From IMG/VR virus record IMGVR_UViG_3300033146_004404, positions 1-64,000 of that record: a DNA stretch of 64,000 nt, one strand, 5' to 3'. The notes under the pieces are model-generated. The model made no database searches. It was not told where the DNA came from and saw only the letters and a list, made by a program, of their open reading frames with translations. This stretch comes from a virus. Lineage: Duplodnaviria > Heunggongvirae > Uroviricota > Caudoviricetes. Shown here one piece after another: positions 17,036-34,977 of the stretch; position 1 is the stretch's first letter, and each line of letters starts with the position of its first letter. The position numbers and the translations under genes were made by a program.

Positions 17036-17779
17036 ATGAGTTTTGAAAAAGCAAAAAGAATCGCACAGATTCTACAAGATAACGGATTCAAAGCTGTCTT
17101 TGCTGGCGGTGCTGTTCGGGATATGGTTCTTGGCGTCGAGCCACATGATTTCGATGTGGCAACTTCAGCAAGACCTGAAGATGTTAAAAGAATTTTTATC
17201 AACTCTAGTTTTGTAGGCGAAAGTTTTGGTGTATCACTTGTTGAAGGCATTGAAGTCGCATCATTTAGAATTGATAAAAGTCAGGTTGATGGTAGAAAAC
17301 CAAACAGTATTGAATTTGCTTCAATGGAAGAGGATTCAAAACGCAGAGACCTGACAATCAATGCTCTGTTCTGGGATCCGATTAGTGAAGAATTCTTTGA
17401 CTTTGTTGGTGGAATGAAAGACATCGAAGAAAAAATAATAAGATTTGTTGGTGATCCAATTAAAAGAATAGAAGAAGATAACTTGAGAATAATGAGAGCT
17501 ATCAGATTTGCTCATAAGTTGAACTTTACTCTTAGCAAGAGTACTACTCTTGCGATTGTTAATAATGCTGAAAAAGTAAAGAGTCTGTCAGGTGATAGAA
17601 TTCTTGAAGAACTAAAGAAGGGTATTGTCTTAGATAAACCTTCTAAGTTTATTTCTCTCTTGTTTTCACTTGGTATTTTGAGACATATTCTTCCTGAAAT
17701 AACTGATCTTTCAGGTTGCGAACAACATATAAAATGGCACCCAGAAGGTGCAACAGCTCAAAAGATTATTTGTGACTAA
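17036..17779 (+). CDS. cca: tRNA nucleotidyltransferase (CCA-adding enzyme), N-terminal head/neck fragment
   Basis: 'GGAVRDMVLGVEPHDFDVAT' class-II nucleotidyltransferase signature and 'RRDLTINAL'. Ends '...WHPEG' followed by a short tail, then stop. Confidence 0.75.
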   Translation: MSFEKAKRIAQILQDNGFKAVFAGGAVRDMVLGVEPHDFDVATSARPEDVKRIFINSSFVGESFGVSLVEGIEVASFRIDKSQVDGRKPNSIEFASMEEDSKRRDLTINALFWDPISEEFFDFVGGMKDIEEKIIRFVGDPIKRIEEDNLRIMRAIRFAHKLNFTLSKSTTLAIVNNAEKVKSLSGDRILEELKKGIVLDKPSKFISLLFSLGILRHILPEITDLSGCEQHIKWHPEGATAQKIICD

Positions 17780-17840
17780 ATATCTGCAAAACAAAAAGTT
17801 GGCGTTGGAAAAATGCTTAACTTTTTTAACGGAGGACTGA

Positions 17841-18512
17841 GTGAAACTAGGAGAAAAAATTCCTTTAGATCCAAAAAATAAAGATCATTACGATAAAACA
17901 AAATATAAAATAACTCCAGGTGACGTTTTTGTTCATACAATGAAGGTTTTGGATAACATCGAATCAAAAGATTGGCGTGTTAGACTTGCTGCTTTATTTC
18001 ACGACATTGGCAAACCTGCAACTGCTGTTGATAAAGGTGAAGGTCGAATTTCAAACAAAGGTCATGATAAAGAAGGCGCAAAGATGGTTTTTGAAATTGG
18101 TAAAAGATTGTCTATGTCAAATGAAAACATTGCCTTAATTTCAAATCTAGTTAAGGATCATATGAACTTTAAAGAAGTTAAGAATATGAAAAGATCAACT
18201 CTTAGACGTTTTCTTTCTAAACCTCATATTGTTGAACTAATCGAACTTTCCAAAGCTGATAGTCTTGGTACTGATTTTGAGCACGATATGTCATTCATTG
18301 ACTTTGCAAAAAATCAGTTGAAAAATTTTGACGATTTGAATGAACCTGTTATGCCAGATCCTTTTGTTGATGGTCATGATTTGATTGCTATGGGCTTCAA
18401 GCCTAGTCCAAAATTTAAAGTTATGTTGGATAAAGTTATGGATTTGCAATTGGAAAATAAAATCAACAGTAAAGAAGAAGGAATCGATTTCATCGTAAAA
18501 AAATTTATTTGA
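17841..18512 (+). CDS. cca: CCA-adding enzyme C-terminal HD-domain fragment
   Basis: GTG start with GGAGGA RBS; 'PGDVFVHT' and 'LFHDIGKP' HD motifs. Continues the HPEG|DVxxHT motif that is split from the upstream ORF. Confidence 0.7.
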   Translation: MKLGEKIPLDPKNKDHYDKTKYKITPGDVFVHTMKVLDNIESKDWRVRLAALFHDIGKPATAVDKGEGRISNKGHDKEGAKMVFEIGKRLSMSNENIALISNLVKDHMNFKEVKNMKRSTLRRFLSKPHIVELIELSKADSLGTDFEHDMSFIDFAKNQLKNFDDLNEPVMPDPFVDGHDLIAMGFKPSPKFKVMLDKVMDLQLENKINSKEEGIDFIVKKFI

Positions 18513-20562: not shown

Positions 20563-21855
20563 ATGATTGAGGTTAAAGGAAGATACGGAACAGCTAAAGT
20601 TTTTAATGACGTAGTAGAAGAAACTGCGTTAGAACAAATTAAAGTCGTTATGAACCAAAAAATGGTCGATGGCGCAAAAGTTAGAATTATGAGTGATGTT
20701 CATGCAGGAGCAGGATGTGTTATAGGTTATACAGCAACTATGACAGATCGAGTCTGTGTAAATTTAATTGGCGTGGACATCGGTTGCGGAGTTCTTGCAT
20801 ACAAATTGACTAATAAAGTTATTGACTTCAAAAAGTTAGATAGAACTATTAAAGACAGAGTTCCTACTGGATTTAATATTCATTCAGAAATAAATTTGGA
20901 CTTTGTTGGCTCTTTAGGTTCTGAGATGGAAGTTTTTTACAAAAATGTCTTAAATGTTTGTAAAGAAACAAAACAAGATTATGATTATGCTATGAGATCA
21001 CTTGGAACTCTTGGTGACGGAAATCACTATATTGAAATTGATAAGAATATTGAAACAGGCGAATTGTATTTAATGATCCATACTGGGTCAAGAAAATTTG
21101 GTTTCAATGTAGCTAATCACTTTCAGAATCTTGCTGTAGAAAACTGTACTAATAAAGTTGATGTAGGAAAAATCAAAAATGACTTAATAACTTCTTATAG
21201 AGAAGCTGGAAAAGAAAAAGAAATACAGGCAGCATTAGCTGAAATAGATAGTAGGCTTTTTCCTTCTACGAGAACGGTCCCTGAAGGCATGGAATTTATT
21301 CAAGGGAAAGTACGAAAAGATTATTTACGTTCAATGATGGTCGCTCAGCGATACGCAGAACTAAATAGAGAATATATTGCCAGAATTATTTTGAAATATT
21401 CAGATTTATTTGCCTGTGAGAAGATTGAATCAGTTCATAACTATATAGACAGAGGACATGATTTTACTGGCAGTATTATTAGAAAAGGAGCTATTTCAGC
21501 ATTTAGAGGAGAAGAAGTTTTAATACCTTTGAATATGGCTGATGGAACTTTGCTTGGAACTGGTAAAGGAAATCCTGACTGGAATTTCTCTGCACCTCAC
21601 GGAGCAGGACGATTGATGAGTAGAAAGAAAGCAAGAAGGAACATTGACATAACAGACTATCAAGAAAGAATGAAAGATGTCTGGTCTTCTTGCGTAAATC
21701 TTTCAACTATTGATGAAGCTCCTATGGCTTATAAAAATGCTGATGAAATAAAAAAGTATATTGAGCCTACTGTATCAATCACAGCTCATTTGAAACCAGT
21801 TTATAATTTAAAGGCGAATGACTATATGAAAAGATGTTTATTTAAAGGCGAATGA
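20563..21855 (+). CDS. rtcB: RtcB RNA 3'-phosphate/5'-OH ligase
   Basis: 'MSDVHAGAGCVIG', 'GVDIGCG' and C-terminal 'APHGAGR' RtcB signatures. Confidence 0.85.
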   Translation: MIEVKGRYGTAKVFNDVVEETALEQIKVVMNQKMVDGAKVRIMSDVHAGAGCVIGYTATMTDRVCVNLIGVDIGCGVLAYKLTNKVIDFKKLDRTIKDRVPTGFNIHSEINLDFVGSLGSEMEVFYKNVLNVCKETKQDYDYAMRSLGTLGDGNHYIEIDKNIETGELYLMIHTGSRKFGFNVANHFQNLAVENCTNKVDVGKIKNDLITSYREAGKEKEIQAALAEIDSRLFPSTRTVPEGMEFIQGKVRKDYLRSMMVAQRYAELNREYIARIILKYSDLFACEKIESVHNYIDRGHDFTGSIIRKGAISAFRGEEVLIPLNMADGTLLGTGKGNPDWNFSAPHGAGRLMSRKKARRNIDITDYQERMKDVWSSCVNLSTIDEAPMAYKNADEIKKYIEPTVSITAHLKPVYNLKANDYMKRCLFKGE

Positions 21856-23043: not shown

Positions 23044-23049
23044 TAATTT

Positions 23050-23118
23050 GCCGGATTAACTCAAGGAAGAGTGTCAGAATTGAACTGAAAGTCGTGGGTT
23101 CGATTCCCACATCCGGTA
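23050..23118 (+). tRNA. tRNA, anticodon probably UUG (Gln)
   Basis: Acceptor gccggat/atccggt, D-stem actc/gagt, T-arm gtggg-ttcgatt-cccac. The anticodon loop has A33 and a 27:43 mismatch. Confidence 0.5.
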
Positions 23119-23163
23119 TAGACCGTTTGACACTAACAGCAATCAAATGAAGAAAAAACTGCA

Positions 23164-23199
23164 AATTTTAAGGTGTGGGTTCGATTCCCACTACGATTG
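23164..23199 (+). other. tRNA-like minihelix (acceptor stem plus T-arm only)
   Basis: aatttta-ag-gtggg-ttcgatt-cccac-tacgatt-g, with no D or anticodon arm. Confidence 0.35.
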
Positions 23200-23266
23200 G
23201 TCATCGTATGGTGTAATGGTAGCATTAATCATTAACGTGTCGAGACTAAAAAGAAAGGGGAGAAAA

Positions 23267-24127
23267 TTGTTTTATGTAAACGAACAAAAGAAAAGGAGTC
23301 TTATAAAATCTCTTCCTAGTCTTAATGAAACTACTTTAGTCAATTTTTTTGACGAAATAGATTTCAGCCTACTAGGCGAAACAAAAACTCGTGATGTTTT
23401 TGATCACATCTATTCAAAAACTGAAAAGAGAATTATTTTATTTCTTAATAAAGCGAAGGTTGAAAGTTCAAATACTTCTTCTAAAAATGGAAATAAAATT
23501 ACCATAAACAATCAAAGGTTTGATGAAGTGTTTATGTCTCATCTAGCTGCAGGAATTTCTGCAGAAAAATTTGAAGAACTCTTTCCTTATATACGCAGAA
23601 TAAATGGGGCTTTTTACTATTTTGATAAAAATGGAAATTCATTAAATAATTACTATTTTGATATGTTTGAGTATAATGCAGTAGAATCAGGTATTGCCGC
23701 CGATATGGAAGCAGTGATAGAGGCCAAAGAAAAAGATTATGGAGATAAGAAAATGGGGAAAATGACTAACACTGTAAAGAATGTTGTAGAGATGAATAAA
23801 TCAGCTGGTAAGCAGGCAGCTCTTGTAAAAATTGGAAAGACTGCAAACCATGCAGTGATTGAAGTTCTACAGAAGAAAGTCATTCCAAAGAAATACAAGA
23901 AAATTGTAGAGAGTCCTTTTTTCGGTCTGGCTATAGCTAATGTTTCAGCAGTTGCAATGAAAGAATATGCTTCCGAAAGAAGTGATGGAGCAAAAGTAGA
24001 AGCAGTCGCTGACGCAATGCTTTTAAGTTCAATGCTTGAAATTACTGATATGATTGATCTTAATAAAATCATAACAGATGTGATCGAATCAGTTGATCTT
24101 AAGTCGCTCGGGTTCAGTGAAGATTAA
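23267..24127 (+). CDS. hypothetical protein
   Basis: The six-frame ORF starting at 23147 overlaps tRNA-like sequence. A TTG start at 23267 after AAAGGGGAG is more plausible. Confidence 0.4.
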   Translation: MFYVNEQKKRSLIKSLPSLNETTLVNFFDEIDFSLLGETKTRDVFDHIYSKTEKRIILFLNKAKVESSNTSSKNGNKITINNQRFDEVFMSHLAAGISAEKFEELFPYIRRINGAFYYFDKNGNSLNNYYFDMFEYNAVESGIAADMEAVIEAKEKDYGDKKMGKMTNTVKNVVEMNKSAGKQAALVKIGKTANHAVIEVLQKKVIPKKYKKIVESPFFGLAIANVSAVAMKEYASERSDGAKVEAVADAMLLSSMLEITDMIDLNKIITDVIESVDLKSLGFSED

Positions 24128-24159
24128 GAAAATTAGCCCGAAGGGCTAATAAATAATAT

Positions 24160-24234
24160 CAGTGTGTGACGGGAAAGGCTTATCCGTGCTCCCCTGGAAG
24201 GAGGAAAATGTGGGTTCGAGTCCCACCTCACTGA
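24160..24234 (+). tRNA. tRNA, anticodon probably UGG (Pro)
   Basis: Acceptor cagtgtg/ctcactg, D-stem acgg/ccgt, anticodon loop cctggaa, T-arm gtggg-ttcgagt-cccac. Confidence 0.45.
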
Positions 24235-24414
24235 CTTTGGTAAATAGTGATAATAGAGAAATATCTCTTGGCACTGGAGAAAGTAATCTGGACGTAAGTC
24301 TTAATTCAATTCCGGAAAAAGAATTAGGATAAGAAGCGATGAAGAAATCGTAAAGGATCATACCCGAGTATAGGGAGACTGCAGGTTCGAATCCTGCGTT
24401 GCCAATATTTTAAT

Positions 24415-24443
24415 TTGACAAAAAAAGAATAATATGGTATAAT
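24415..24443 (+). promoter_or_regulatory. consensus early promoter copy 13
   Basis: Identical core; tRNA-Asp starts about 22 nt after the -10. Confidence 0.75.
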
Positions 24444-24464
24444 TAAGTATAAAGAAATATAAAT

Positions 24465-24538
24465 GCCTTAATAGTTTAATTGGCTAAAGCACTGGTCTGT
24501 CAAATCAGAGAGTCCGAGTTCAATCCTCGGTTAGGGCG
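24465..24538 (+). tRNA. tRNA-Asp (GUC)
   Basis: Full cloverleaf: acceptor gccttaa/ttagggc, anticodon loop ctGTCaa, T-arm ccgag-ttcaatc-ctcgg. Directly downstream of promoter copy 13. Confidence 0.8.
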
Positions 24539-24563
24539 TAAACAAAATTTTATGGAGTGTTAG

Positions 24564-25013
24564 TTGATAACATTAACAGAACAGAATAAAAAAGAGGCAG
24601 CAAGAGTTGTAAGTAATTTGATTCATGAATATCAGGATGTTAAAGATTATTTTATGGATTATAATGACGAGATGGAGAGCATCGAAGGCTTGATTTTTGA
24701 ATATATTGAAAATCATAAATGGCTTCTACAAGAGAAGATTCCTTTTACTGTTACAGTAAATCAGGCTTTTCACTCTTGGTATGAAAATGTATTCTTGTAT
24801 CAGACCTCAGCAATGAGAGCGACGGGAATAAGAAGAGCAGTAATTCATCAGTCGAACAAGGAATTGTTTGACTTAGTCTCAAAAGAATATTATAGTATGA
24901 CAGATAAAGATGATATCTTCTGCTATGCTATAGCTTGTCAAAGAGTCATAAAGAAATATTCTACAAAATGGATATATAAGTTTCTAGCGAAAATTTATAT
25001 GAAAAAAGCATAA
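24564..25013 (+). CDS. hypothetical protein
   Basis: ORF (TTG or a later ATG start). Confidence 0.4.
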   Translation: MITLTEQNKKEAARVVSNLIHEYQDVKDYFMDYNDEMESIEGLIFEYIENHKWLLQEKIPFTVTVNQAFHSWYENVFLYQTSAMRATGIRRAVIHQSNKELFDLVSKEYYSMTDKDDIFCYAIACQRVIKKYSTKWIYKFLAKIYMKKA

Positions 25014-25071
25014 GAGCATTTTACAGTAGTTTTACTGTTTGGAAAGAGTGTTTTAAAGTAAAATGATTTTT

Positions 25072-25143
25072 GGTCTCATAGTATAATGGTTAGTACATAT
25101 GGTTTTCATCCATAAAATCGGAGTTCGATTCTCCGTGAGACTG
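25072..25143 (+). tRNA. tRNA-Glu (UUC)
   Basis: Acceptor ggtctca/tgagact, anticodon stem tatgg/ccata with loop ttTTCat, T-arm cggag-ttcgatt-ctccg. Confidence 0.75.
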
Positions 25144-25156
25144 TAAAGGAATAATA

Positions 25157-25690
25157 ATGAAACACAGAAATGTTTTAAAGTATTCTGAAAGACCATTTAA
25201 GGACATTTCTGAGATGAACGTGAAGCTCCTAGAAAATATCAATAATTCAGTTGAACCTGGAGATGAGATATACTTTTTAGGTGACATAGGGCACTCTCAC
25301 AAAGAAGTGAAGCTCTTTTTTGACAATTTAAAGAGTGGAATTGGTTTTCATTGGATTATTGGAAATCACGATAAAAAGTTATTGACAGCAGCACCAAAGA
25401 AAAGAGTAAGTAGCATTTCATATATTAAAGAGATTTATGTGGAAAAAAAACCTATAATTCTATGTCATTATCCAATGCTTACATGGGATAAGAGTCATTA
25501 TAATTCATGGCATTTATTTGGACATCATCATAAAAACGGACATGATAAAGAAGGTCTTGAAAGTAGACTTACTGGAAAAATGTTTAATGTTAATCTTGAG
25601 TTCAATGATTACCAGATGTATAGTGAAAAAGACATTATAAGAATAATGATGGCAAAAGAAAACAATTGGGATTTTATAAAAGAACGTTAA
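25157..25690 (+). CDS. metallophosphoesterase (calcineurin-like)
   Basis: 'IYFLGDIGHSH' (GDxxxR-like) and 'IIGNHDKKL' (GNHD/E) motifs. Confidence 0.7.
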   Translation: MKHRNVLKYSERPFKDISEMNVKLLENINNSVEPGDEIYFLGDIGHSHKEVKLFFDNLKSGIGFHWIIGNHDKKLLTAAPKKRVSSISYIKEIYVEKKPIILCHYPMLTWDKSHYNSWHLFGHHHKNGHDKEGLESRLTGKMFNVNLEFNDYQMYSEKDIIRIMMAKENNWDFIKER

Positions 25691-25697
25691 AAAAAAC

Positions 25698-25726
25698 TTG
25701 ACAAAAAAAGAATAATATGGTATAAT
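25698..25726 (+). promoter_or_regulatory. consensus early promoter copy 14
   Basis: Identical core; precedes the small ORF and the Thr-Phe-Ala-Met-Asn tRNA array. Confidence 0.75.
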
Positions 25727-25744
25727 TAAGTATAAGGAGAAAAG

Positions 25745-25924
25745 ATGAAATCTTTAACCGTTAAGGAAATGATTGAGAAATTACAAGAGTTGCCGATGGA
25801 TGAAGAAGTCGTTCTTTTTGGAGAGGGAAAAATCTTCCCTTGCCTTGTGATCAATAGGCTTCAATTTGGAGAAGGACATCATATTGAAATAGCTGGTGGT
25901 TGGAACCCTTTAGAAGAAAATTAA
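25745..25924 (+). CDS. small hypothetical protein (59 aa)
   Basis: AAGGAGAAAAG RBS then ATG, downstream of promoter copy 14; precedes the tRNA array. Confidence 0.35.
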   Translation: MKSLTVKEMIEKLQELPMDEEVVLFGEGKIFPCLVINRLQFGEGHHIEIAGGWNPLEEN

Positions 25925-25928
25925 TATT

Positions 25929-26001
25929 CGCATCCATAGCACAACGGATTAGTGCAGGAGTCTTGTAAACTTCTGATCTGGGTTCGATTCCCAGTGGATG
26001 C
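25929..26001 (+). tRNA. tRNA-Thr (UGU)
   Basis: Acceptor gcatcca/tggatgc, D-stem gcac/gtgc, anticodon loop ctTGTaa, T-arm ctggg-ttcgatt-cccag. Confidence 0.8.
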
Positions 26002-26004
26002 TTT

Positions 26005-26063
26005 TAGGCACTTACAGCAATCAAAACTATAATTAGAAAGAATGTAAAAAGCAAAGTGTCTAG
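26005..26063 (+). ncRNA. conserved inter-tRNA hairpin element (copy)
   Basis: tAGGCACTtACAGCAATCAAA...AGTGTCTAg; one copy of a recurring element. Confidence 0.4.
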
Positions 26064-26070
26064 TTTTTAT

Positions 26071-26143
26071 GCCGTTTTAGCTCAGTAGGTAGAGCGTCTG
26101 TTTGAAGAGCAGAGCGTCTCCGGTTCAATTCCGGGAGGCGGCA
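26071..26143 (+). tRNA. tRNA-Phe (GAA)
   Basis: Acceptor gccgttt/aggcggc (with G-U pairs), D-arm tagctcagtaggtagagc, anticodon loop ttGAAga, T-arm tccgg-ttcaatt-ccggg. Confidence 0.75.
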
Positions 26144-26146
26144 AAT

Positions 26147-26217
26147 GGGGTTATAATATAACGGAATTATGGAAGACCTGCAATCTTCATATCGGGGTTC
26201 AACTCCCCGTAGCTCCA
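26147..26217 (+). tRNA. tRNA-Ala (UGC)
   Basis: Acceptor ggggtta/tagctcc with a G3:U70 wobble (the Ala identity element), anticodon loop ccTGCaa, T-arm cgggg-ttcaact-ccccg. Confidence 0.7.
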
Positions 26218-26224
26218 TAAACGT

Positions 26225-26296
26225 AGCGGGGTTGAGGAATTGGAACCTCATAAGGCTCATAACCCTATCATGCAAGTTCGAGTCTTGCCTCCGCCT
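26225..26296 (+). tRNA. tRNA with CAU anticodon (Met or Ile2)
   Basis: D-stem gagg/cctc, anticodon loop ctCATaa, T-arm gcaag-ttcgagt-cttgc. A1:C72 mismatch. Confidence 0.5.
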
Positions 26297-26298
26297 TT

Positions 26299-26358
26299 TA
26301 GACATTAACAGCAATCAAAAAAAACCAAACTGTTAATTTGAAAATAAAAAATGTCTAG
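26299..26358 (+). ncRNA. conserved inter-tRNA hairpin element (copy)
   Basis: TAGACATTAACAGCAATCAAA...ATGTCTAG. Confidence 0.4.
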
Positions 26359-26460
26359 TTTTACTGAAAGTTAGTGTCGGGACGAGAGAGCACAGTAGTA
26401 TGAAAATACTTCCAAGCCTTCTCCCAGACTTTTTCTGTAGTCTTAAAAGAACAGTAACAT

Positions 26461-26534
26461 TTCCTTGAAGCTTATCTGGTAAAGCGCCAAATCGTTAATT
26501 TGGAGTCTTCTTGGTTCGAGTCCAAGCAGGGGAG
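26461..26534 (+). tRNA. tRNA, anticodon probably GUU (Asn)
   Basis: Acceptor ttccttg/cagggga (all paired including G-U), D-stem gctt/aagc, anticodon stem ccaaa/tttgg with loop tcGTTaa, T-arm cttgg-ttcgagt-ccaag. Confidence 0.5.
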
Positions 26535-26674
26535 AAAGCTGAATTTTGAGTAAGGTCGCTACGAAGAACAACTCTAAAACAAAAACAAAAAGGAGAAGCT
26601 ATGAAATTCACATAGGTAAAACCGCCTTAACTGCTATATATAAATGAATAATTTATATATAGGAGAATGAAAAG

Positions 26675-27037
26675 ATGAATGAAGTGATAATGAAAAATAC
26701 TGAAATTAATTATGTAGTAAGAGATTCGATAAGAGAGTTAAAAAAGGATTTAAAGCTTTTATCTGTTAAGATTAGAGAATTTAAAAGAATTAGGGATACC
26801 TCTAAGAACATTGATGAAGTAGCCAGCTGTATGTCAGAGCTTGTAAATATAAGAGAATCTTATAGACTATGTCACATTCTTTACTGTTTAATAAGAGGTA
26901 GAAAATATCTGGAAGTTGAAAACAAGGTAGCTTATGGGAATAAGGGTTCTCTTTCAGCTTTGAAATGCAAATGCTTACAATATAATGGACTTGATCTTGA
27001 TAGTTGCACTGTCAAGCAACTAGAGGGGTTGAGATAA
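26675..27037 (+). CDS. hypothetical protein
   Basis: ORF with RBS (taggagaatgaaaag) then ATG. Confidence 0.45.
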   Translation: MNEVIMKNTEINYVVRDSIRELKKDLKLLSVKIREFKRIRDTSKNIDEVASCMSELVNIRESYRLCHILYCLIRGRKYLEVENKVAYGNKGSLSALKCKCLQYNGLDLDSCTVKQLEGLR

Positions 27038-27039
27038 AG

Positions 27040-27408
27040 ATGGTAAAACAAGTTATTATAGCGAGGACAGATTTAGATATGTCTTCTGGGAGGATGCCTT
27101 CACAGGTCGCTCACGCATCCATTGCAGTTTTTCTCGATATGGGAAAATGGGATGGAGATAATTTTACGTTGAAAAATGTCGATAAGGATATTCAGTATTG
27201 GATGAAAAAATCATTCACTAAGGTAGTTTTAAAAGTCCATAGTGAAGAAGAGTTGGTTAAACTTCAAGAGTTAGCTAAGGGATTAAAACTCCCGAGCGCA
27301 ATGATTGAAGACGATGTAATGGGTAGAGTTGAGAAAACTGCGCTCGCAATCGGGCCTGCTCTTGTTGAGGATATAGATGCTATAACAGGCAAACTATTCT
27401 TGTTTTAA
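27040..27408 (+). CDS. peptidyl-tRNA hydrolase, PTH2 family
   Basis: 'KQVIIARTDLDMSSGRMPSQVAHASIAVF' matches the PTH2 core (VxVVRTDLxMxxGKxAAQxxHA). Start chosen at ATG 27040 immediately after the upstream stop. Terminator at 27413-27432. Confidence 0.7.
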   Translation: MVKQVIIARTDLDMSSGRMPSQVAHASIAVFLDMGKWDGDNFTLKNVDKDIQYWMKKSFTKVVLKVHSEEELVKLQELAKGLKLPSAMIEDDVMGRVEKTALAIGPALVEDIDAITGKLFLF

Positions 27409-27412
27409 ATTT

Positions 27413-27432
27413 TTGGCCCTTCGGGGCCTTTT
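27413..27432 (+). terminator. rho-independent terminator
   Basis: ggccc-ttcg-gggcc-tttt after the PTH2 gene. Confidence 0.65.
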
Positions 27433-27434
27433 AT

Positions 27435-27507
27435 GTGTCTGTCGTATAATGGCTATTACGATGCCTTCTAAAAGCACCAGATCAGGGTTCGAATCCCTGC
27501 AGACACG
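27435..27507 (+). tRNA. tRNA with CUA anticodon (candidate amber suppressor)
   Basis: Perfect acceptor gtgtctg/cagacac, T-arm caggg-ttcgaat-ccctg, anticodon loop ttCTAaa with U33 and A37. The anticodon stem has terminal A-C/C-A mismatches. Confidence 0.4.
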
Positions 27508-27544
27508 ATAGGGCAATGTTGTTCACCCTATAATATTATTTCTT

Positions 27545-27615
27545 GGCACAGTGAAATTGGTTTTCAAGCTAGGCTCATATCTTAGTTTCCGTGGGTTCGA
27601 TTCCCACCTGTGCTT
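27545..27615 (+). tRNA. tRNA with CAU anticodon
   Basis: Acceptor ggcacag/ctgtgct, anticodon stem ctagg/cttag with loop ctCATat, T-arm gtggg-ttcgatt-cccac. Atypical D-arm. Confidence 0.5.
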
Positions 27616-27617
27616 TT

Positions 27618-27689
27618 GCTGGGAGGGCGTTGGAGTCCCAGATCAGGTTCATAACCTGTTTCTTCGTCGGTTCGATTCCGTCCTCAGCT
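27618..27689 (+). tRNA. tRNA with CAU anticodon
   Basis: Acceptor gctggga/cctcagc, anticodon stem cagg/cctg with loop ttCATaa. T-arm carries a U-U mismatch. Confidence 0.45.
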
Positions 27690-27975
27690 ATAATGAGAAA
27701 ATCAAGTAACGAGAGAATTAACAGTGTAGCTTGGCTGTTCGACAGACCAAAATTCTCTCAGTTTTTTAAGAGGTATTTATGAAAGACACAAAAGTAACTA
27801 TGAGTAACTATGAATATTGATGAGTATAACAAATTAGTCAATATAATTGAAAAGACTTTAATATTTAAAGAGAATTTAAAGACTAAGCTTAAGGAAGCCA
27901 TTGTCTATAAAGAAAAAGAGATAAAATCAATGACTTTCTTTGAACTTATGAAAAGGTATCTAGCTAAATAAATCC

Positions 27976-28004
27976 TTGACAAAAAAAGAATAATATGGTA
28001 TAAT
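27976..28004 (+). promoter_or_regulatory. consensus early promoter copy 15
   Basis: Identical core; precedes 28023 and the Arg/Glu tRNAs. Confidence 0.75.
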
Positions 28005-28022
28005 TAAGTACAAGGAAGGGAA

Positions 28023-28220
28023 ATGATGGATTATGTGCAAGTAAGAGTTAAAAAAGAAGGTGCTGAAATTTATCAAATGGCTTGGGTCGAAAAGTTAAAA
28101 AGTGTCGTTGAGGGGTGTAAAATAACTATTGAGGATAATGGAGTTTTTTGGGAAGTGCTTAATTTATATACAGGAAAGCAAGTTCCAAAAGAAGATCTCT
28201 TAAAGGCTTTGGAATATTAA
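28023..28220 (+). CDS. small hypothetical protein
   Basis: Promoter copy 15 plus GGAAGGG RBS. Confidence 0.4.
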   Translation: MMDYVQVRVKKEGAEIYQMAWVEKLKSVVEGCKITIEDNGVFWEVLNLYTGKQVPKEDLLKALEY

Positions 28221-28228
28221 TAAAACAT

Positions 28229-28301
28229 GTACCGTTAGCGTATTGGATGACGCAACAGGCTTCTAACCTGTTAAAACTGGGTTCGATTCCCAGACGGTGC
28301 T
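28229..28301 (+). tRNA. tRNA-Arg (UCU)
   Basis: Acceptor gtaccgt/acggtgc, D-stem gcgt/acgc, anticodon stem acagg/cctgt with loop ctTCTaa, T-arm ctggg-ttcgatt-cccag. Confidence 0.8.
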
Positions 28302-28308
28302 TTTACTT

Positions 28309-28381
28309 GTCCCTGTCGTCTAATGGTTAGGACGCAAGTTTCTCAAACTTGTAATCTTAGGTTCAATTCCTAGTAGGGGTG
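28309..28381 (+). tRNA. tRNA, anticodon possibly CUC (Glu)
   Basis: D-stem cgtc/gacg, anticodon stem caagt/acttg with loop ttCTCaa, T-arm ttagg-ttcaatt-cctag. G-U-rich acceptor; boundaries approximate. Confidence 0.4.
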
Positions 28382-28404
28382 TCAATAAAACAAGGGGTTT
28401 AAAA

Positions 28405-28833
28405 ATGATCTTGAAAGAGTTAAAGAAACAGAAAATAATACTTAAGAAAACAAACCCAGTTAGATCTGGTGTTTTAGCGTCTCTTATAGCAGAGACTGAA
28501 AAAACAGCTAAAGTAGCTAAGAGAGAAGCTCTTCAGGAAGATGTTGAAAAAGCAGCAGCAATGCTTACAAAACAGTTACAGAAAACTGTTGATGAAGTTA
28601 AAGTTGGAGAAGTAGTTGAAGGCTATAAACTCGAGATTGCTGAGCTGAAAGATTTTATTCCAGAAACAGTAAATAGAGAGCTTACTACAGAAATGATCGA
28701 AGAAGTCTTAAAGGAATATCCTGAGCCTTCTATGAAGATTATGGGAAAGGTTATCAGTGAATTGAAGAAAAGATATGGTAATAAGATTGATATGGCGATT
28801 GCTTCGAAAGAAGTGAAAGCTCTATTGAGTTAA
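28405..28833 (+). CDS. YqeY / GatB C-terminal-domain-like protein
   Basis: C-terminal '...EEVLKEYPEPSMKIMGKVISELKKRYGNKIDMAIASKEVKALL' resembles the GatB_Yqey motif (E..P...MGKVMG.VM.K..G.ADG..V...V...L). Confidence 0.5.
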   Translation: MILKELKKQKIILKKTNPVRSGVLASLIAETEKTAKVAKREALQEDVEKAAAMLTKQLQKTVDEVKVGEVVEGYKLEIAELKDFIPETVNRELTTEMIEEVLKEYPEPSMKIMGKVISELKKRYGNKIDMAIASKEVKALLS

Positions 28834-28839
28834 AAATAT

Positions 28840-28913
28840 GCGCCTATAGCTCTAATGGTTAGAGCAGCTCCCTCATAAGGAGACGGTTCTTGGTTCGAGT
28901 CCAGGTGGGCGCA
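28840..28913 (+). tRNA. tRNA with CAU anticodon (Met/fMet/Ile2)
   Basis: Acceptor gcgccta/tgggcgc, D-arm tagctctaatggttagagc, anticodon loop ctCATaa, T-arm cttgg-ttcgagt-ccagg. Confidence 0.7.
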
Positions 28914-28986
28914 TTATCAAGTCAAGAGGTTTCACGAGTGAAAAAATATTTATACGGTTCCTAGCGATAGGAGGAAATATATTATA

Positions 28987-29523
28987 ATGAAATATTACTT
29001 AATGAAAAACAATGACAATCAGGATTTAAGAAAATTTGGCGATTGGTGGGAGCTGATCGCCTTTTTAGACTATAGATGTATTAAGTGCTTTGTTCACAAC
29101 CCTAATGATTCTTACGGAGGTTCTTACGTTTCTAAAAGAATAGGGTTGAAAGAATATGAGCATGTTTATCATGACTATGATGTTTATACTGTCTTTGATG
29201 GATTGATGAGAATTATCAACAAAGTAGAACTACAAGATGGGCTGAAGAAATTTAACCCTTCCTACGGAAGACAGGTAAGAGGAAGAAAACAAAAATATTT
29301 TAATTGGATGAGAAGCAAACGAGGATATCGTTATGCTAATCCAAAAAGAAGAGGAAAACGCTTCAGAATAGAAATGGATGAGGCGAGAAAAATGTTCCCA
29401 AATAAAGGAAGGTTAAATACTTTAGAAGTTGTTACCTCTTGGGGTGACGATTGGGGAACTATAGCTATAAGTAGAAGTTGGAAAGATCAAAGTAAAAAGA
29501 GGAAACAGTGGTTATCCTCATAA
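28987..29523 (+). CDS. hypothetical basic protein
   Basis: ORF with AGGAGGAAAT RBS; Arg/Lys-rich C-terminal half. Confidence 0.45.
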   Translation: MKYYLMKNNDNQDLRKFGDWWELIAFLDYRCIKCFVHNPNDSYGGSYVSKRIGLKEYEHVYHDYDVYTVFDGLMRIINKVELQDGLKKFNPSYGRQVRGRKQKYFNWMRSKRGYRYANPKRRGKRFRIEMDEARKMFPNKGRLNTLEVVTSWGDDWGTIAISRSWKDQSKKRKQWLSS

Positions 29524-29542
29524 TACTTTAAGGGGATAGTAT

Positions 29543-29640
29543 GTCAGTTTTTTTAATTATTTCAATGGCTGTTTTTGTCTGTGCTGTGATAATATATCAG
29601 TTTTTTTAATTATTTCAATGGCTGTTTTTGTCTATGCTAT
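29543..29640 (+). repeat. ~48-bp tandem duplication spanning the start of 29618
   Basis: tcagtttttttaattatttcaatggctgtttttgtctRtgct repeated twice, with two mismatches. Confidence 0.75.
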
Positions 29641-29830
29641 GATTGGGTTTATTACTTTCAAAATATTAAATGAGCATTTATTCATTTTTGATATAGACGA
29701 CTTTGACTGTTTTGTATCTGCGTTTTGGCCGGTTGGATGGTTTGGAATAGCTGCATATTATGCAGGAACAGCTATAGTTGATTTTGTAGAAGATAGGAAA
29801 AAAAATAAAAGAATAAAGTTTGCCCCTTAG
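29618..29830 (+). CDS. small membrane protein
   Basis: Two predicted TM helices; its start lies inside the second copy of a ~48-bp tandem duplication. Confidence 0.4.
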   Translation: MAVFVYAMIGFITFKILNEHLFIFDIDDFDCFVSAFWPVGWFGIAAYYAGTAIVDFVEDRKKNKRIKFAP

Positions 29831-29891
29831 TGTAATGGCTGCACAAAACACTCTGAATGTTTTAGTAGAGGTCCGAATCCTCTAGGGGTTT
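29821..29891 (+). tRNA. tRNA, anticodon probably CUG (Gln)
   Basis: Anticodon stem aaaca/tgttt with loop ctCTGaa, T-arm agagg-tccgaat-cctct, acceptor tgcccct/aggggtt (first pair mismatched). Overlaps the stop of the upstream ORF. Confidence 0.5.
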
Positions 29892-29933
29892 ACTGTAATC
29901 CATTAAGTCTTACATAAACAAAAAGGAATTAAG

Positions 29934-30887
29934 ATGCCACAAGCTGTAATTGTTTCAGGTAGAAGTAATAGACCTTTATCAAAAGATATTCTATTCAACT
30001 TAGGATTAAAGGGAAAAGAAATTCCCACTATTATAATGGATTTTCCCAACAAAGAAATATTTGTTAAGTACAAAGAAAGTATAAGAGGAAAAGACGTATT
30101 CATAATAAATACATTTAATGGTGATCCTAATAAGGATCTAGTAGAAACTTTAATTTTAGCTGATACAGCATTTACGTCATCAGCTAGAAGGATAACGGTT
30201 GTTCTTCCAATCATTTACGGTTCTAGGCAAGATAGAAAAAGTTCGCTTAGAACTCCTGTCACTATATCAATGATGGCTAAAATCTTCAAGTCAGTTGGTA
30301 TAGATCGCATCGTAACGGTTTCGTTACATGCACCACAATCAGCAGCAGCATTTTTTGCGGCTGGTTTACGCTTTGATAATATCTCTGGAAGTGGAATTTT
30401 TCTTTCAGATATGAAAGAGCTTATGAAGACAGAGAATTTTGTCGTCGTATCTCCTGACGCCGGTGGGCTTTCTAGGGCAAGATACTATGCTAAAGTATTA
30501 GATACTGACATAGCATTTGCTGATAAGAGACGAGGAGCTGACAGAAAATCTGAAATCATGAATCTTGTAGGTGACGTTAAAGGTAGAAATGTTTTTATTG
30601 TTGATGATATGATCGATGGCGGTGGAACAATTATTGGTGTAGCAAATGCCTTGAAAGCAGGTGGAGCAGAGAATGTTTATTGTCTTGCTACACATATGGT
30701 GCTTTCAGGTGATGCTGCTGAAAAGCTGAATAACTCAGTTATTAAAACAATTTATGGCAGTAACTCTATCATAAAAAACAGTCTTCCAAGCAAATTCAAA
30801 ATCAAAAGTCTTGGGCCAACACTTTCTAATGTAATAGAGAAAATTCATAATGATGAAAGCGTTGGTGATGCTTGCGAAGAGTTATAA
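29934..30887 (+). CDS. prs: ribose-phosphate pyrophosphokinase (PRPP synthetase)
   Basis: 'RGKDVFIINTFNGDPNKDLVETLILADTAFTSSARRITVVLPIIYGSRQDRK' and 'VVVSPDAGGLSRA' match Prs signature regions. Confidence 0.8.
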   Translation: MPQAVIVSGRSNRPLSKDILFNLGLKGKEIPTIIMDFPNKEIFVKYKESIRGKDVFIINTFNGDPNKDLVETLILADTAFTSSARRITVVLPIIYGSRQDRKSSLRTPVTISMMAKIFKSVGIDRIVTVSLHAPQSAAAFFAAGLRFDNISGSGIFLSDMKELMKTENFVVVSPDAGGLSRARYYAKVLDTDIAFADKRRGADRKSEIMNLVGDVKGRNVFIVDDMIDGGGTIIGVANALKAGGAENVYCLATHMVLSGDAAEKLNNSVIKTIYGSNSIIKNSLPSKFKIKSLGPTLSNVIEKIHNDESVGDACEEL

Positions 30888-30890
30888 TTT

Positions 30891-30919
30891 GACAAAAAAA
30901 GAATAATATGCTATAATTA
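30891..30919 (+). promoter_or_regulatory. consensus early promoter copy 16
   Basis: TTGACAaaaaaagaataatatgcTATAAT; precedes the Rnl2-like gene. Confidence 0.75.
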
Positions 30920-30936
30920 AGCATAAGGAGGAAAAA

Positions 30937-31890
30937 ATGGATTTTAAAAGATGGTGTTCAATAGAGAATCATTACCAGACGGCTACTTTCAATCGCTGGA
31001 TTACAAAGCATCCAGAGGTAAATGGTGCCTCCTACAAAGTTACAGAAAAAATTCATGGTGCTAATTTTTCCATTTTGACTTCTCCTGATGGAACTTTAAA
31101 ATTTGCTTCACGAAACAACATTCTTGAAGAGACAGATAAGTTTTATGGATACAAAGAGATCATGTCTAAGTATCAGGATATTATTGACTTCTTACTTAAA
31201 GAGTCAAAAACAATGGGAGAGGAACTTCAGCTATACGGAGAGGTCTTTGGTGGATCAATCCAGAAAGGCGTATTTTACGGAAAAGAAAAACAGTTTCGTT
31301 GGTACTCTTTAAGAGTTAATGGAACTGTAATTGCTCCAATGGAATCAACTCTTAAACTTCAGGAAATCGGAGAACATGAAGCTCCTGTAATTGGTATTTT
31401 TACAATTAAAAAAGATTTACTTGAATTGATTGAAAGAATCGACACAAAATTTAATTCTAAGCTTACTCCTGTTGGCTATGCTGATGAGAATCTTTGTGAA
31501 GGTGTTGTAATTGTTCCTTATGAAAGGAATTTTTACAATCAGAATTCACTTCTTTTAATCAAGAAGAAGAATAATGAGTTCATAGACAAGCAGCGTAAGC
31601 CAAAAGTAATTAAGTCCATTCCTGAAAATATTCAGAATGTGTTTGCTAATTACTCCTCATTTGTCTGTGAGGTACGTACAAACGATTTGTTTTCTAAAGT
31701 TGGAGAATTTACTGAAATGAAAGAGATTTCAAAATTCGCCAAAGCTTATTTCGAAGACGTTGCAGTTGATTACGAAAAAGAATTTTTGACTGAATGGGAA
31801 GAGCTTTCTAAGGCAGATAAGCAAGCAGTCAAGAAGATGATCGGAACAAGAATTTTTATTGAACTGAAAGAGAGTTTGTCAAGAGCTTAA
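30937..31890 (+). CDS. RNA ligase, Rnl2-family nucleotidyltransferase
   Basis: 'IENHYQ' and 'EKIHGANFS' match the T4 Rnl2 N-terminus and motif I (ENHYN...KIHGTNFS). Confidence 0.7.
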   Translation: MDFKRWCSIENHYQTATFNRWITKHPEVNGASYKVTEKIHGANFSILTSPDGTLKFASRNNILEETDKFYGYKEIMSKYQDIIDFLLKESKTMGEELQLYGEVFGGSIQKGVFYGKEKQFRWYSLRVNGTVIAPMESTLKLQEIGEHEAPVIGIFTIKKDLLELIERIDTKFNSKLTPVGYADENLCEGVVIVPYERNFYNQNSLLLIKKKNNEFIDKQRKPKVIKSIPENIQNVFANYSSFVCEVRTNDLFSKVGEFTEMKEISKFAKAYFEDVAVDYEKEFLTEWEELSKADKQAVKKMIGTRIFIELKESLSRA

Positions 31891-31896
31891 TTTTCA

Positions 31897-31936
31897 GAGG
31901 TGAAGGAATATTGCTGGTTCGACTCCAGCCACCTCT
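31897..31936 (+). other. tRNA-like minihelix (acceptor stem plus T-arm only)
   Basis: gaggtg-(10 nt)-ctgg-ttcgact-ccag-ccacctc; no D or anticodon arm. Confidence 0.35.
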
Positions 31937-31937
31937 T

Positions 31938-31983
31938 TAGACATTAACAGCACAAAAAGCGTGGAAGCAAAAAAATATGTCTA
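31938..31983 (+). ncRNA. conserved inter-tRNA hairpin element (copy)
   Basis: TAGACATTAACAGCAcaaaa...ATGTCTAG. Confidence 0.4.
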
Positions 31984-31996
31984 GCCCCTTACGTTT

Positions 31997-32068
31997 CGTC
32001 CGTTAGAAAAATGGTTAATTCGTCAGCTTGCAACCCTGAAGGTGTGGGTTCGATTCCCACACGGATGT
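31997..32068 (+). tRNA. tRNA, anticodon probably GCA (Cys)
   Basis: Acceptor cgtccgt/acggatg, anticodon stem tcag/ctga with loop ttGCAac, T-arm gtggg-ttcgatt-cccac. Confidence 0.5.
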
Positions 32069-32320
32069 TTAAAATAAAATAAAAGGAAAGGACAGAAAGA
32101 ACTGGCTGATAGAAAATTTATTAACATTGAAGGAGTAAAATATTTTTTCGAGACAACTCTTACTGATGATAGTCCTGCTATTGGAATAGCTTACTTGAGA
32201 TCTAGTGATATAACTAGACTTAAAACGAGAAATTCAAAGAAAGCACTTGAAGAGACTTATGGCACACTAAGAAAATATAGTATAATGTTATAGTGTCATA
32301 TATACTCTAAGGAGTATATA

Positions 32321-32521
32321 ATGGTATTTATTGATGATGACATTAAGATCGAAAAAACAGAATACAATGGGCAGACTTATGTTTCAATCAGGAAGTGGTA
32401 TAAAGATAGAACTTCCGGAGAATCTAAGCCTTCTAAAAATGGTATAAATATGTCGATGGAAGCTTGGGAAGAGTTCACAAGTAAAATTAATGAGATAAAG
32501 GAAGATATTGAATTTTCATAA
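32321..32521 (+). CDS. small hypothetical protein
   Basis: ORF with AAGGAG RBS. Confidence 0.4.
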   Translation: MVFIDDDIKIEKTEYNGQTYVSIRKWYKDRTSGESKPSKNGINMSMEAWEEFTSKINEIKEDIEFS

Positions 32522-32522
32522 G

Positions 32523-32807
32523 GGGGCTGTAAAAGGTTTCGACTGGATGGTAAAGTTTGATCGGTGTTTTAAATTTTTATAGTTGACGAAACAGAAACTT
32601 ATTACGCACAGGTTGCGTAACTGACTCTTGCTTCATTTGTTCCTTCCGTGAAGTAAGAGAGAAAGGAAGGATAGTCTGTTTGTTATTCTCTGACGATAAA
32701 CAAGTAATAACAAGAGGTTTTATTATTGATGATTTCCTTTTAAAAAACAATCTTTCAACAGATCAAAATAGTCATACAGGACGAGGGTCCGATTCCCTCC
32801 AGCTCCA
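32523..32807 (+). ncRNA. ssrA: tmRNA (SsrA), CCA not encoded
   Basis: 5' 'ggggctgtaaaaggtttcgactgg' parallels E. coli ssrA 'ggggctgattctggattcgacggg'. 3' 'caggacgagggtccgattccctccagctcca' parallels 'cggacgcgggttcaactcccgccagctcca'. Acceptor has G3:U70. Internal 'ttatagtt|GAC GAA ACA GAA ACT TAT TAC GCA CAG GTT GCG TAA' gives tag (A)DETETYYAQVA, analogous to 'aatagtc|GCA...ANDENYALAA'. Terminator at 32851-32885. Confidence 0.7.
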
Positions 32808-32850
32808 TTTAGTTTTTTGTTGGTGTAGAGGTTCATGACACAAACCCTGA

Positions 32851-32885
32851 GCCGACAAGAATTTATTCTTGTCGGCTCTTTTTTT
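32851..32885 (+). terminator. rho-independent terminator after tmRNA
   Basis: gagccgacaag-aatttatt-cttgtcggctc-ttttttttt. Confidence 0.75.
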
Positions 32886-32914
32886 TTGACAAAAAAAGAA
32901 TAATATGGTATAAT
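32886..32914 (+). promoter_or_regulatory. consensus early promoter copy 17
   Basis: Identical core; precedes 32916/32934. Confidence 0.75.
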
Positions 32915-34374: not shown

Positions 34375-34603
34375 AACTAGAGAATACACACAGGGAGAGA
34401 AAGGATTCTTAATTGGATTTTCTCTCGGCCTCTTTATTTTTTGCTGCCTTGGGTTTATGCTTACAGTTCCAATAACAGCTCATTACAAAAGTGGATATAT
34501 GGATGGGCAACTTGATTATCAAAAAGGGAATATAAAATATATTCTTACAGAGAAAGGTTTTACGGAGATTAATAATGAAAAAAAGAATAGGATTTGTAAG
34601 TAA
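34343..34603 (+). CDS. small membrane protein
   Basis: ORF overlapping the rSAM 3' end, with one TM helix; start uncertain (34343 or 34364). Confidence 0.35.
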   Translation: MKGGARFMTYRTREYTQGEKGFLIGFSLGLFIFCCLGFMLTVPITAHYKSGYMDGQLDYQKGNIKYILTEKGFTEINNEKKNRICK

Positions 34604-34967
34604 CAGTTCTTCAAGCTCATTTGTGATAGTAATAGATGAAACTATCGTTGAAAAAGTAGAAGAGAATCTCTCCCCTCTCAGTAAAGCAATCTTTGATAGA
34701 ATCAAGAAAACGAAATACTCATTCACATCTGTGGATTGGATAGATGGAGAATATGGTGACTTATTTGACGGTGAAGTAAAAGATGTCATTGAAGGCGACA
34801 TCACATTCAAGGCAGATCTTGATAAAGCTATTACTGAGTCAGATCGTGAAGACTTTCAAGACTGGGAATATCTTAGCGAAGTACAAAATACTTTTTCAAA
34901 AGAGCTCTTTGCTGCCTTGAAACAAGAAGATAAATGCTTTTATATCATAAGCAAAACTAATATGTAA
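34575..34967 (+). CDS. tandem paralog 1 with conserved N-terminus MKKRIGFVSNSSSSSF
   Basis: Shares an identical 16-aa N-terminus with the next three genes. Followed by 'VIVIDE', then a divergent acidic body. Confidence 0.6.
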   Translation: MKKRIGFVSNSSSSSFVIVIDETIVEKVEENLSPLSKAIFDRIKKTKYSFTSVDWIDGEYGDLFDGEVKDVIEGDITFKADLDKAITESDREDFQDWEYLSEVQNTFSKELFAALKQEDKCFYIISKTNM

Positions 34968-34977
34968 AGGAGAATAA

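Follow-up and report, generated by a model that had tools for sequence, protein, structure and literature searches.

The locus examined here raises the question of whether a short interval flanked by phage tRNA genes encodes a working tmRNA (ssrA), and what a phage would gain from carrying it. The locus lies in a 64,000-nt stretch of viral DNA, referred to below as the window. An earlier note, made from the sequence alone, had proposed a phage-encoded tmRNA with the predicted tag (A)DETETYYAQVA, and two independent programs agree with it. ARAGORN called a tmRNA at 32523-32807 (+) with a length of 285 nt, as had been estimated, and with the same tag frame (coding part at gene positions 63-98), and the Rfam model RF00023 matched 32523-32810 over its full length (model positions 1-374) with 72.9 bits against a gathering score of 47, i.e. 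the no-match case that had been set against the proposal did not occur. Since the Rfam match has an E value of 2.1e-26, a chance match is excluded, and the sequence at 32523-32807 is a genuine phage-encoded tmRNA gene. Taking its structure, relatives and surroundings together, it very probably is a functional gene for a one-piece tmRNA, carried by an uncultured jumbo myophage. The features of the locus and of its relatives are given in Table 1.

Table 1. Features of the tmRNA locus, of its genomic surroundings and of homologous tmRNAs (positions of the homologues are those of their own contigs)
Feature	Position	Strand	Details
tmRNA (ssrA) gene	32523..32807	+	ends at discriminator A; ARAGORN, Rfam RF00023, six homologues in related phages
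Acceptor stem, 5' strand GGGGCUG	32523..32529	+	pairs with CAGCUCC 32800-32806; contains the G3·U70 alanine identity pair
Helix 2, 5' strand	32543..32562	+	gene positions 21-28 / 34-40, pairing with 239-245 / 250-257 (window 32761-32779)
U-rich linker, 22 nt, at the usual place of PK1	32563..32584	+	ends in frame-setting UAUAGUU, A at -4
Tag reading frame GAC..GCG UAA	32585..32620	+	DETETYYAQVA + stop; ARAGORN, sequence inspection
Helix 5 hairpin UUACGCA-CAGGU-UGCGUAA	32602..32620	+	gene positions 80-86 / 92-98; UAA stop in stem
Pseudoknot 2 (PK2)	32625..32671	+	stem 1 gene positions 103-114 / 126-137; stem 2 119-125 / 143-149
Candidate pseudoknot 3 (PK3)	32677..32716	+	gene positions 155-161 / 174-180 and 160-169 / 184-194; from stem listing
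Weak 3' hairpin at PK4 position	32726..32758	+	gene positions 204-207 / 233-236 and 209-212 / 227-230
T-arm GAGGG-UCCGAUU-CCCUC	32783..32799	+	C at usual U55 position
Intrinsic terminator	32849..32887	+	13-bp stem (7 G-C pairs, 32849-32878), 4-nt loop, T9
PC4-like 66-aa ORF	32321..32521	+	Pfam PF02229, E 2.9e-14; ends 1 nt before tmRNA
tRNA-Cys	31997-32068		between Rnl2-type ligase and PC4-like ORF
T4 Rnl2-type RNA ligase	30937-31890		upstream of tmRNA
PRPP synthetase	29934-30887		upstream of tmRNA
PTH2 peptidyl-tRNA hydrolase	27004..27408	+	Pfam PF01981, E 1.8e-26; tblastn; ribosome-rescue-related
RtcB	20563-21855		E 6e-55
CCA-adding enzyme homologue, split	17036..18512	+	head ORF 17036-17779, HD-domain ORF 17841-18512
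DNA methyltransferase	14449-15678		Pfam match
Ro/TROVE-like protein (DUF2828/DUF7788)	37031-38503		Pfam match
Tail sheath	47611-49560	-	phrog_23, E 5e-58
Head-tail adaptor-like protein	53322-55769	-	PHROG match
ThyX	59659-61398		Pfam match
L001 tmRNA	4565-4858		tag DEFDYAVAA; Rfam 81.8 bits
L094 tmRNA	3968-4251		tag DEFELMAA; Rfam 82.3 bits
L095 tmRNA	5197-5484		tag DEFDYAIAA; Rfam only, 51.3 bits; T-loop one nt short, missed by ARAGORN
L090 tmRNA	5304-5595		tag DESNYALAA; directly 3' of intact CCA-adding enzyme gene
L092 tmRNA	5472-5769		tag DETVEYAYAA; ARAGORN only
L091 tmRNA	5815-6139		tag DNYVAEDSFYSDSYELAVA

The tRNA-like domain

Both halves of the tRNA-like domain, which had been likened to those of E. 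coli SsrA including the G3:U70 pair, are in place, i.e. the acceptor stem, the discriminator A and the T-arm. The window tmRNA also has the elements UUCGAC (5') and GGAC (3'), which we take to be the SmpB-contact region. In a fixed-register comparison of the seven family members (the window copy and the six homologues), the discriminator A and G3·U70 are invariant (7/7), and fixed-register counts show covariation at acceptor stem positions 5 and 6 (C-G, G-C, A-U; U-A, C-G) and at four of the five T stem positions. As had been noted before, CCA is not encoded, TTT following directly on the discriminator A; none of the seven family tmRNAs encodes it, nor does any of the 21 phage tRNAs.

The T-loop of the window tmRNA reads UCCGAUU, with a C where U55 is normally invariant. 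Since the same change is found in tRNA-Gln(CUG) and tRNA-Trp of the window phage and in tRNA-Cys of the related contig L003, we read C55 as a habit of this phage clade and not as decay.

Tag reading frame and internal helices

The internal resume region was confirmed as well: UAUAGUU is followed by the resume codon GAC (Asp), and both this codon and the A at -4 are found in all seven family members. The counterpart of this A in E. coli is A86, which fixes the frame four nucleotides further on and is the sole upstream position where a mutation leaves the tmRNA inactive (PMC2481249). The frame is short, has its UAA stop inside helix 5, a hairpin also found in the relatives, and ends in a hydrophobic, Ala-rich C-terminus. 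All seven tags begin with Asp and six of them with Asp-Glu, and five carry a canonical, degron-like YA(L/V/I/Y)AA or LMAA end. The AQVA end of the window tag is the least canonical of the family; five of the six relatives end in xAA. Since in E. coli a tag ending in -LVA leads to breakdown nearly as quickly as one in -LAA (PMC3511798), the -VA end of the window tag would be compatible with proteolytic targeting, and the tag probably still marks products for proteolysis.

Covariation analysis of the whole molecule in the manner of MAFFT and RNAalifold was abandoned, as the pseudoknot region and the ends of the L095 copy were misaligned; it was replaced by fixed-register counts and by own-versus-other strand pairing energies for the seven members. 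In this duplex test, the strands of helix 2 pair with their own partners at -16.5 kcal/mol versus -7.1 ± 2.5 kcal/mol with mismatched ones, the own partner being the best in six of the seven members and ranking second in the window copy. For stem 1 of PK2 the own partner is the best in every member (-11.2 versus -3.4 kcal/mol mismatched), and stem 2 (UCCUUCC/GGAAGGA) is conserved in sequence among members. The compensatory change in helix 2 and PK2 shows that the tmRNA is under selection as an RNA. The hairpin at the PK4 position is better formed and shows compensatory changes in L001, L094, L095 and L090, and is weak in the window copy.

The earlier note had expected some pseudoknots to be reduced in so short a molecule, and this proved right: PK2 stands, with covariation, and PK3 is a candidate, whereas PK1 is missing and no more than a weak hairpin is seen in place of PK4. 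The spacing between helix 2 and the resume codon is 22 nt in the window and about 22-31 nt among the seven members, and about half of the 22-nt linker is the single-stranded frame-setting stretch. Given this spacing, the deletion of the PK1 columns in the RF00023 alignment and the failure of the stem listing to yield a two-stem arrangement between helix 2 and the resume codon, PK1 is absent from the window tmRNA. A small hairpin occurs at this place in L091 only, and a search for a long-range partner of the linker motif GGYGUUUU that could substitute for PK1 returned nothing convincing, the A-rich candidates being weak and in competition. PK1 is an almost universal element of bacterial tmRNAs (PMC1168896). 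Because the E. coli tmRNA stays active when PK1 is exchanged for another structure (PMC2481249), we regard its loss as unusual, yet not disqualifying for a tmRNA, PK1 being a typical and not a strictly defining element.

Homologues and insertion site in related phages

Searches that started from the Ro-like protein recovered seven syntenic phage contigs from other metagenomes. Homologous tmRNAs were found in six related contigs, each a few kb upstream of the Ro-like gene, and the Ro-like proteins across the phages with a tmRNA are only 53-63 % identical. A family profile detected no further copies in the 99 fetched loci besides a truncated twin of L001. No matches came from exact-end scans of viral contig DNA, nor from a single-protein locus search; a metagenome scan gave four chance matches that are not tmRNAs, in a collection that returned neither the window nor the L001 contig, and a genome-collection scan with a degenerate family pattern gave two chance matches and no bacterial tmRNA of the family type. 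Six of the more distant Ro-carrying IMG/VR contigs that were fetched carry unrelated tmRNAs, four of them permuted, and a separate viral contig, L099, carries a CCA-encoding tmRNA with the tag DEPQLLAA.

L003, the closest syntenic relative, shares the local order of the window (RNA ligase, tRNA-Cys, PC4), and no tmRNA was found in the 21 kb of it that were fetched. Its PC4 stop codon abuts a promoter, TTGACAAAAAAAGAATAAT.TG.TATAAT, which in the window stands after the terminator. Compared with L003, the window therefore has a clean insertion of ~368 nt (about 32513-32880) that comprises the tmRNA and its terminator. The interval 32523-32885 delimited in the earlier note thus matches a natural unit. 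As L003 has no tmRNA at this site, the gene is dispensable at least there. In L001 and L094 the tmRNA lies after a hemerythrin-like gene, and in L092 between tRNA-Cys and tRNA-Gln. Judging from these positions, the tmRNA behaves like a mobile accessory cassette inside the tRNA region. There is no integrase among the annotated neighbours of the window tmRNA. An origin as an attP site containing an ssrA fragment, or from host DNA, was ruled out, the gene being full-length, with a divergent tag and in conserved phage synteny.

Transcription and genomic context

A promoter scan found no promoter of its own directly upstream of the window tmRNA. Promoter-like sites are located at 32259-32286 and 32293-32322, from which the PC4-like ORF and the tmRNA are probably co-transcribed. 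In the relatives L001 and L090, consensus promoters lie a few nucleotides upstream of the tmRNA. The strong terminator that had been reported downstream is there, with a 13-bp stem and nine T, and 3' of it lies a perfect TTGACA-17-TATAAT promoter (32886-32914), followed by the genes of a small membrane protein and then of a radical-SAM/SPASM protein.

The window has a G+C content of 30-37 %, with nearly all genes in the same direction. A protein identical to its Ro-like protein is encoded on a JGI contig of 201,184 bp; this match, the tail sheath and the other phage genes indicate that the window belongs to a jumbo phage with a contractile tail and a contig of at least 201 kb. The phage context claimed earlier is thus shown by the genes for the tail sheath, the head-tail adaptor, RtcB and the Ro-like protein, by the 201-kb contig and by the syntenic phage relatives. 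No similarity to 50,697 deposited phage records was detected at the DNA level (blastn, megablast); at the protein level, the best match of the tail sheath is to a Bacillus phage (35 % identity).

The tRNA arrays mentioned in the earlier note flank the tmRNA on both sides, with 16 tRNAs at 23049-32068 and five at 40560-41579, i.e. 21-22 in total according to ARAGORN and Rfam. The split CCA-adding enzyme is a candidate for the maturation of both the tmRNA and the phage tRNAs by CCA addition. Because CCA-less tRNAs, this enzyme, PTH2, RtcB, the Rnl2-type ligase and the Ro-like protein surround the tmRNA, it sits in an island for making, maturing and repairing translation RNAs. A suppressor tRNA(CUA) lies directly 3' of the PTH2 gene. 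Recoding of TAG as the reason for this tRNA was ruled out, since the window is filled by standard-code ORFs and read-through of TAG merges no real genes. No riboswitch scored above the Rfam gathering thresholds in the window.

The search for a phage SmpB-like gene that had been suggested came out negative: tblastn with approximate SmpB query sequences found no SmpB in the 64-kb window of this genome of at least 201 kb, nor in the 99 fetched loci (1.69 Mb in total). The function of the tmRNA would therefore depend on its compatibility with the host SmpB, which is its presumed partner.

Proposed function and alternative explanations

Based on the established biology of trans-translation (PMC3968760, PMC3985003, PMC4131195), the tmRNA would be made by transcription that starts at the promoter-like sites in front of the PC4-like gene, reads through this gene and stops at the tmRNA terminator. 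Its 5' end would be generated by RNase P cutting at G1, and its 3' end by endonuclease trimming, followed by addition of CCA by the phage or the host CCA-adding enzyme. Charged with alanine by the host AlaRS via G3·U70, it would join host SmpB and EF-Tu and enter the empty A site of ribosomes that have stalled at the 3' terminus of a broken or stop-less mRNA. Resuming at GAC would append ADETETYYAQVA (A-DETETYYAQVA), and the ribosome would be freed at UAA.

The phage tmRNA most likely serves to free stalled ribosomes during infection. The earlier note had likewise put forward ribosome rescue upon mRNA cleavage or tRNA depletion, or else a phage-specific degron, as possible roles. The benefit would probably be a ribosome supply that is kept up while phage or host-defence nucleases cut mRNAs and tRNAs, and this fits the location of the tmRNA amid RNA-repair and tRNA-maturation genes. 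More speculatively, the suppressor tRNA(CUA) in a standard-code genome might lead to read-through and stop-less translation and so give an extra reason for a tmRNA. In the literature searched, we found no experiment showing the role of any phage tmRNA during infection.

A more specific proposal, which we consider rather unlikely, is that this PK1-less tmRNA with its Ala-Asp-Glu tag is part of an RNA-damage survival kit of the phage, countering host nucleases that cut tRNAs and mRNAs or clearing ribosomes driven to mRNA ends by the amber-suppressor tRNA, and that the divergent tag routes products differently from the host tag. The members of such a kit would be the CCA-less tRNAs, the CCA-adding enzyme, PTH2, RtcB, the Rnl2-type ligase, the Ro-like protein and the suppressor tRNA.

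Instead of rescuing ribosomes, the phage RNA might mainly act as a competitor that sequesters SmpB, EF-Tu or AlaRS of the host, or takes the place of the host tmRNA, thereby blunting host tagging, quality control or stress sensing, with tagging being only incidental. There is a precedent in the mycobacteriophage DS6A, whose RNA has little beyond the tRNA-like domain, as molecules of this kind are strong inhibitors of tmRNA, perhaps because they titrate SmpB (PMC4131195). The missing PK1 would be in line with such a role, as would the fact that a phage RNA for which no phage SmpB was found must compete for that of the host. However, a decoy needs none of the A at -4 conserved in 7/7 members, the resume codon, the degron-like tag frame, the stop in helix 5 and the compensation in PK2, which makes this explanation unlikely.

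It could also be argued that the tag is not a standard degron, and that its acidic A-D-E start and AQVA end direct the products to another protease or adaptor, or leave them stable, to the benefit of the phage. The Asp start common to the family (7/7, with Asp-Glu in 6/7), the Asp-Glu start in the separate lineage of L099 and the departure of AQVA from the xAA of five of the six relatives agree with this, and for the phage Melnitz it has been proposed that host proteins are tagged selectively (PMC9004378). We nevertheless regard it as very unlikely, given that five of the seven tags have canonical ends, that a -VA ending functions as a degron in E. coli (PMC3511798) and that some of the tag sequence is dictated by base pairing in helix 5 (UUACGC/GCGUAA) and not by the peptide; moreover, a tag can be judged 'phage-specific' only against the host's own tag.

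That the gene is a decaying, non-functional hitch-hiker acquired with the tRNAs and no longer used, as could be read from C55 in the T-loop, the least canonical tag of the family, the lack of a promoter of its own directly upstream, the absence from L003 and the L095 copy with its shortened T-loop, is hardly credible, since the identity and frame-setting elements are all intact, the Rfam score is far over the threshold, the helices still pair despite sequence change among phages with Ro-like proteins as diverged as those described above, the dedicated strong terminator is retained and C55 also occurs in the phage tRNA-Gln and tRNA-Trp.

The clade provides a compact natural set, i.e. seven diverged copies with different tags and L003 without the gene at the exact site, that can be used to ask whether phage tmRNAs rescue ribosomes, whether the tag is relevant and whether PK1 is dispensable in nature. 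The placement of the gene by RNA-repair and tRNA-maturation genes supports the notion of large-phage kits that sustain translation under RNA attack.

Comparison with known tmRNAs

The window tmRNA resembles E. coli SsrA and other bacterial one-piece tmRNAs in G3·U70, the discriminator A, the T-arm, the UUCGAC and GGAC elements and a long helix 2, as well as in the A at -4, the Ala-ending tag, the stop in helix 5, the H-type PK2 and the full-length RF00023 match. It differs from bacterial one-piece tmRNAs in the 22-nt linker that stands in place of PK1 of roughly 30 nt plus linker, and in the reduction of PK4 to a weak hairpin. With 285 nt it is shorter than E. coli SsrA (~363 nt), its resume codon is GAC (Asp) instead of GCA (Ala) and its tag ends in QVA instead of LAA. 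In contrast to E. coli SsrA, it is also phage-borne, does not encode CCA, has C55 in the T-loop and has no SmpB gene nearby.

The earlier note had implied that a phage-borne tmRNA is a rarity, and this surprise was overrated because phage tmRNAs are already documented (PMC4131195, PMC7162821, PMC9004378). In the survey of the tmRNA Website, ssrA was recorded in Bacillus phage G and in at least eight cluster C mycobacteriophages (Bxz1, Wildcat and others), and DS6A was listed with no more than the tRNA-like domain (PMC4131195). Both tmRNAs and SmpB occur in huge phages (PMC7162821), and tmRNAs were found in 402 of 18,146 phage genomes (about 2.3 %), among them many two-piece ones from marine phages (PMC9004378); further tmRNA phages are Melnitz-like phages and pelagi- or cyano-myophages (PMC9004378, PMC7474061). 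The discovery is therefore incremental, phage tmRNAs having been catalogued before. Our tmRNA resembles these in being a complete ssrA of a large tRNA-rich myophage with an assumed role in translation maintenance and in its patchy occurrence within the phage group (PMC4131195, PMC7162821, PMC9004378, PMC7474061). It is one-piece, unlike the permuted tmRNAs of marine phages (PMC9004378), and it also differs from known phage tmRNAs in lacking PK1, in the Asp-Glu tag starts of its family, in showing no DNA similarity to the deposited records and in having no detected riboswitch. The lineage is a new one, and its distinctive features are the lack of PK1, the Asp-Glu tag starts, the lack of CCA and the cassette-like mobility.

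Reduced cellular tmRNAs, such as those of Oenococcus oeni, plastids and Carsonella, share with the window tmRNA a shortened pseudoknot domain together with a retained tRNA-like domain and tag frame (PMC1168896, PMC4131195). The tmRNAs of Oenococcus oeni and plastids are without helix 4 of PK1, and that of the endosymbiont Carsonella measures ~202 nt (PMC1168896, PMC4131195); PK3 and PK4 were lost in plastids and some cyanobacteria, and PK2 was lost in Rickettsia (PMC1168896). The pattern of loss is a different one here, as both helices of PK1 are gone and PK2 is fully kept, whereas the reduced cellular tmRNAs keep PK1 almost everywhere (PMC1168896), and the carrier is a phage instead of a reduced cellular genome.

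tmRNA and Ro-like proteins in other phages

Other phages carrying the Ro-like protein (DUF2828) also harbour tmRNAs, which are unrelated to that of the window (IMG/VR loci L019, L022, L035 and L065, as well as L014, L042 and L099:6163-6447), so that the co-occurrence of tmRNA and Ro-like protein spans several phage lineages. These unrelated tmRNAs include permuted two-piece forms with the tag AN(K/N)IVAFSRQTALV and one, in L099, that encodes CCA and has the tag DEPQLLAA.

tRNA genes and genetic code

The window contains a tRNA with the amber-suppressor anticodon CUA, which is also present in L089 and L090. TAG nevertheless terminates 9 of the 81 long ORFs in the window, and reading through TAG there merged no real genes; the window therefore uses the standard code despite this suppressor.

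A further oddity recurring among the tRNA-like genes of this phage clade is a T-loop C in place of the normally invariant U55, i.e. in the window's tRNA-Gln(CUG) (29821-29891), tRNA-Trp (41115-41184) and tmRNA (T-loop at 32788-32794), as well as in the tRNA-Cys (L003:1263-1335) of L003, a syntenic relative lacking a tmRNA at the same site.

In three relatives with a homologous tmRNA (L001, L090 and L091), the length of certain Rfam tRNA matches (111-118 nt) suggests intron-containing tRNA genes. HNH endonuclease genes are found near these matches.

Irregular tRNA calls were also obtained in the window, at 24160-24235 (ARAGORN, with a two-base 'anticodon (gg)'), 26461-26534 (Rfam alone) and 23141-23199 (short and weak, Rfam alone).

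Features of the window and corresponding positions in related loci
Feature	Window	Other loci	Remark
CCA-adding enzyme homolog, nucleotidyltransferase-head ORF	17036-17779
CCA-adding enzyme homolog, HD-domain ORF	17841-18512
Amber-suppressor tRNA (CUA)	27434-27508	L089:3517-3589; L090:12342-12415	window copy immediately 3' of peptidyl-tRNA hydrolase (PTH2) gene
Perfect sigma-70 consensus promoter	32886-32914	L003:1566-1594	TTGACA-17-TATAAT with TG
Four tandem paralogous small ORFs	34575-36189		130, 95, 135, 172 aa
Long Rfam tRNA matches		L001:8133-8243, 8252-8369; L090:9156-9269; L091:9695-9811, 9813-9927

Promoter and protein-coding genes

The promoter downstream of the tmRNA is nearly base-for-base identical in the window and L003, while the flanking sequence differs; its conservation amid differing surroundings suggests strong early transcription by the host RNA polymerase. 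All four tandem small ORFs share the N-terminus MKKR(I/R)GFVSNSSSSSF.

The head and HD-domain ORFs of the CCA-adding enzyme homolog lie in different frames, separated by a short gap; the gene could be split or frameshifted, or the assembly could be wrong here. In the relative L090 the enzyme is encoded by a single intact gene (443 aa).
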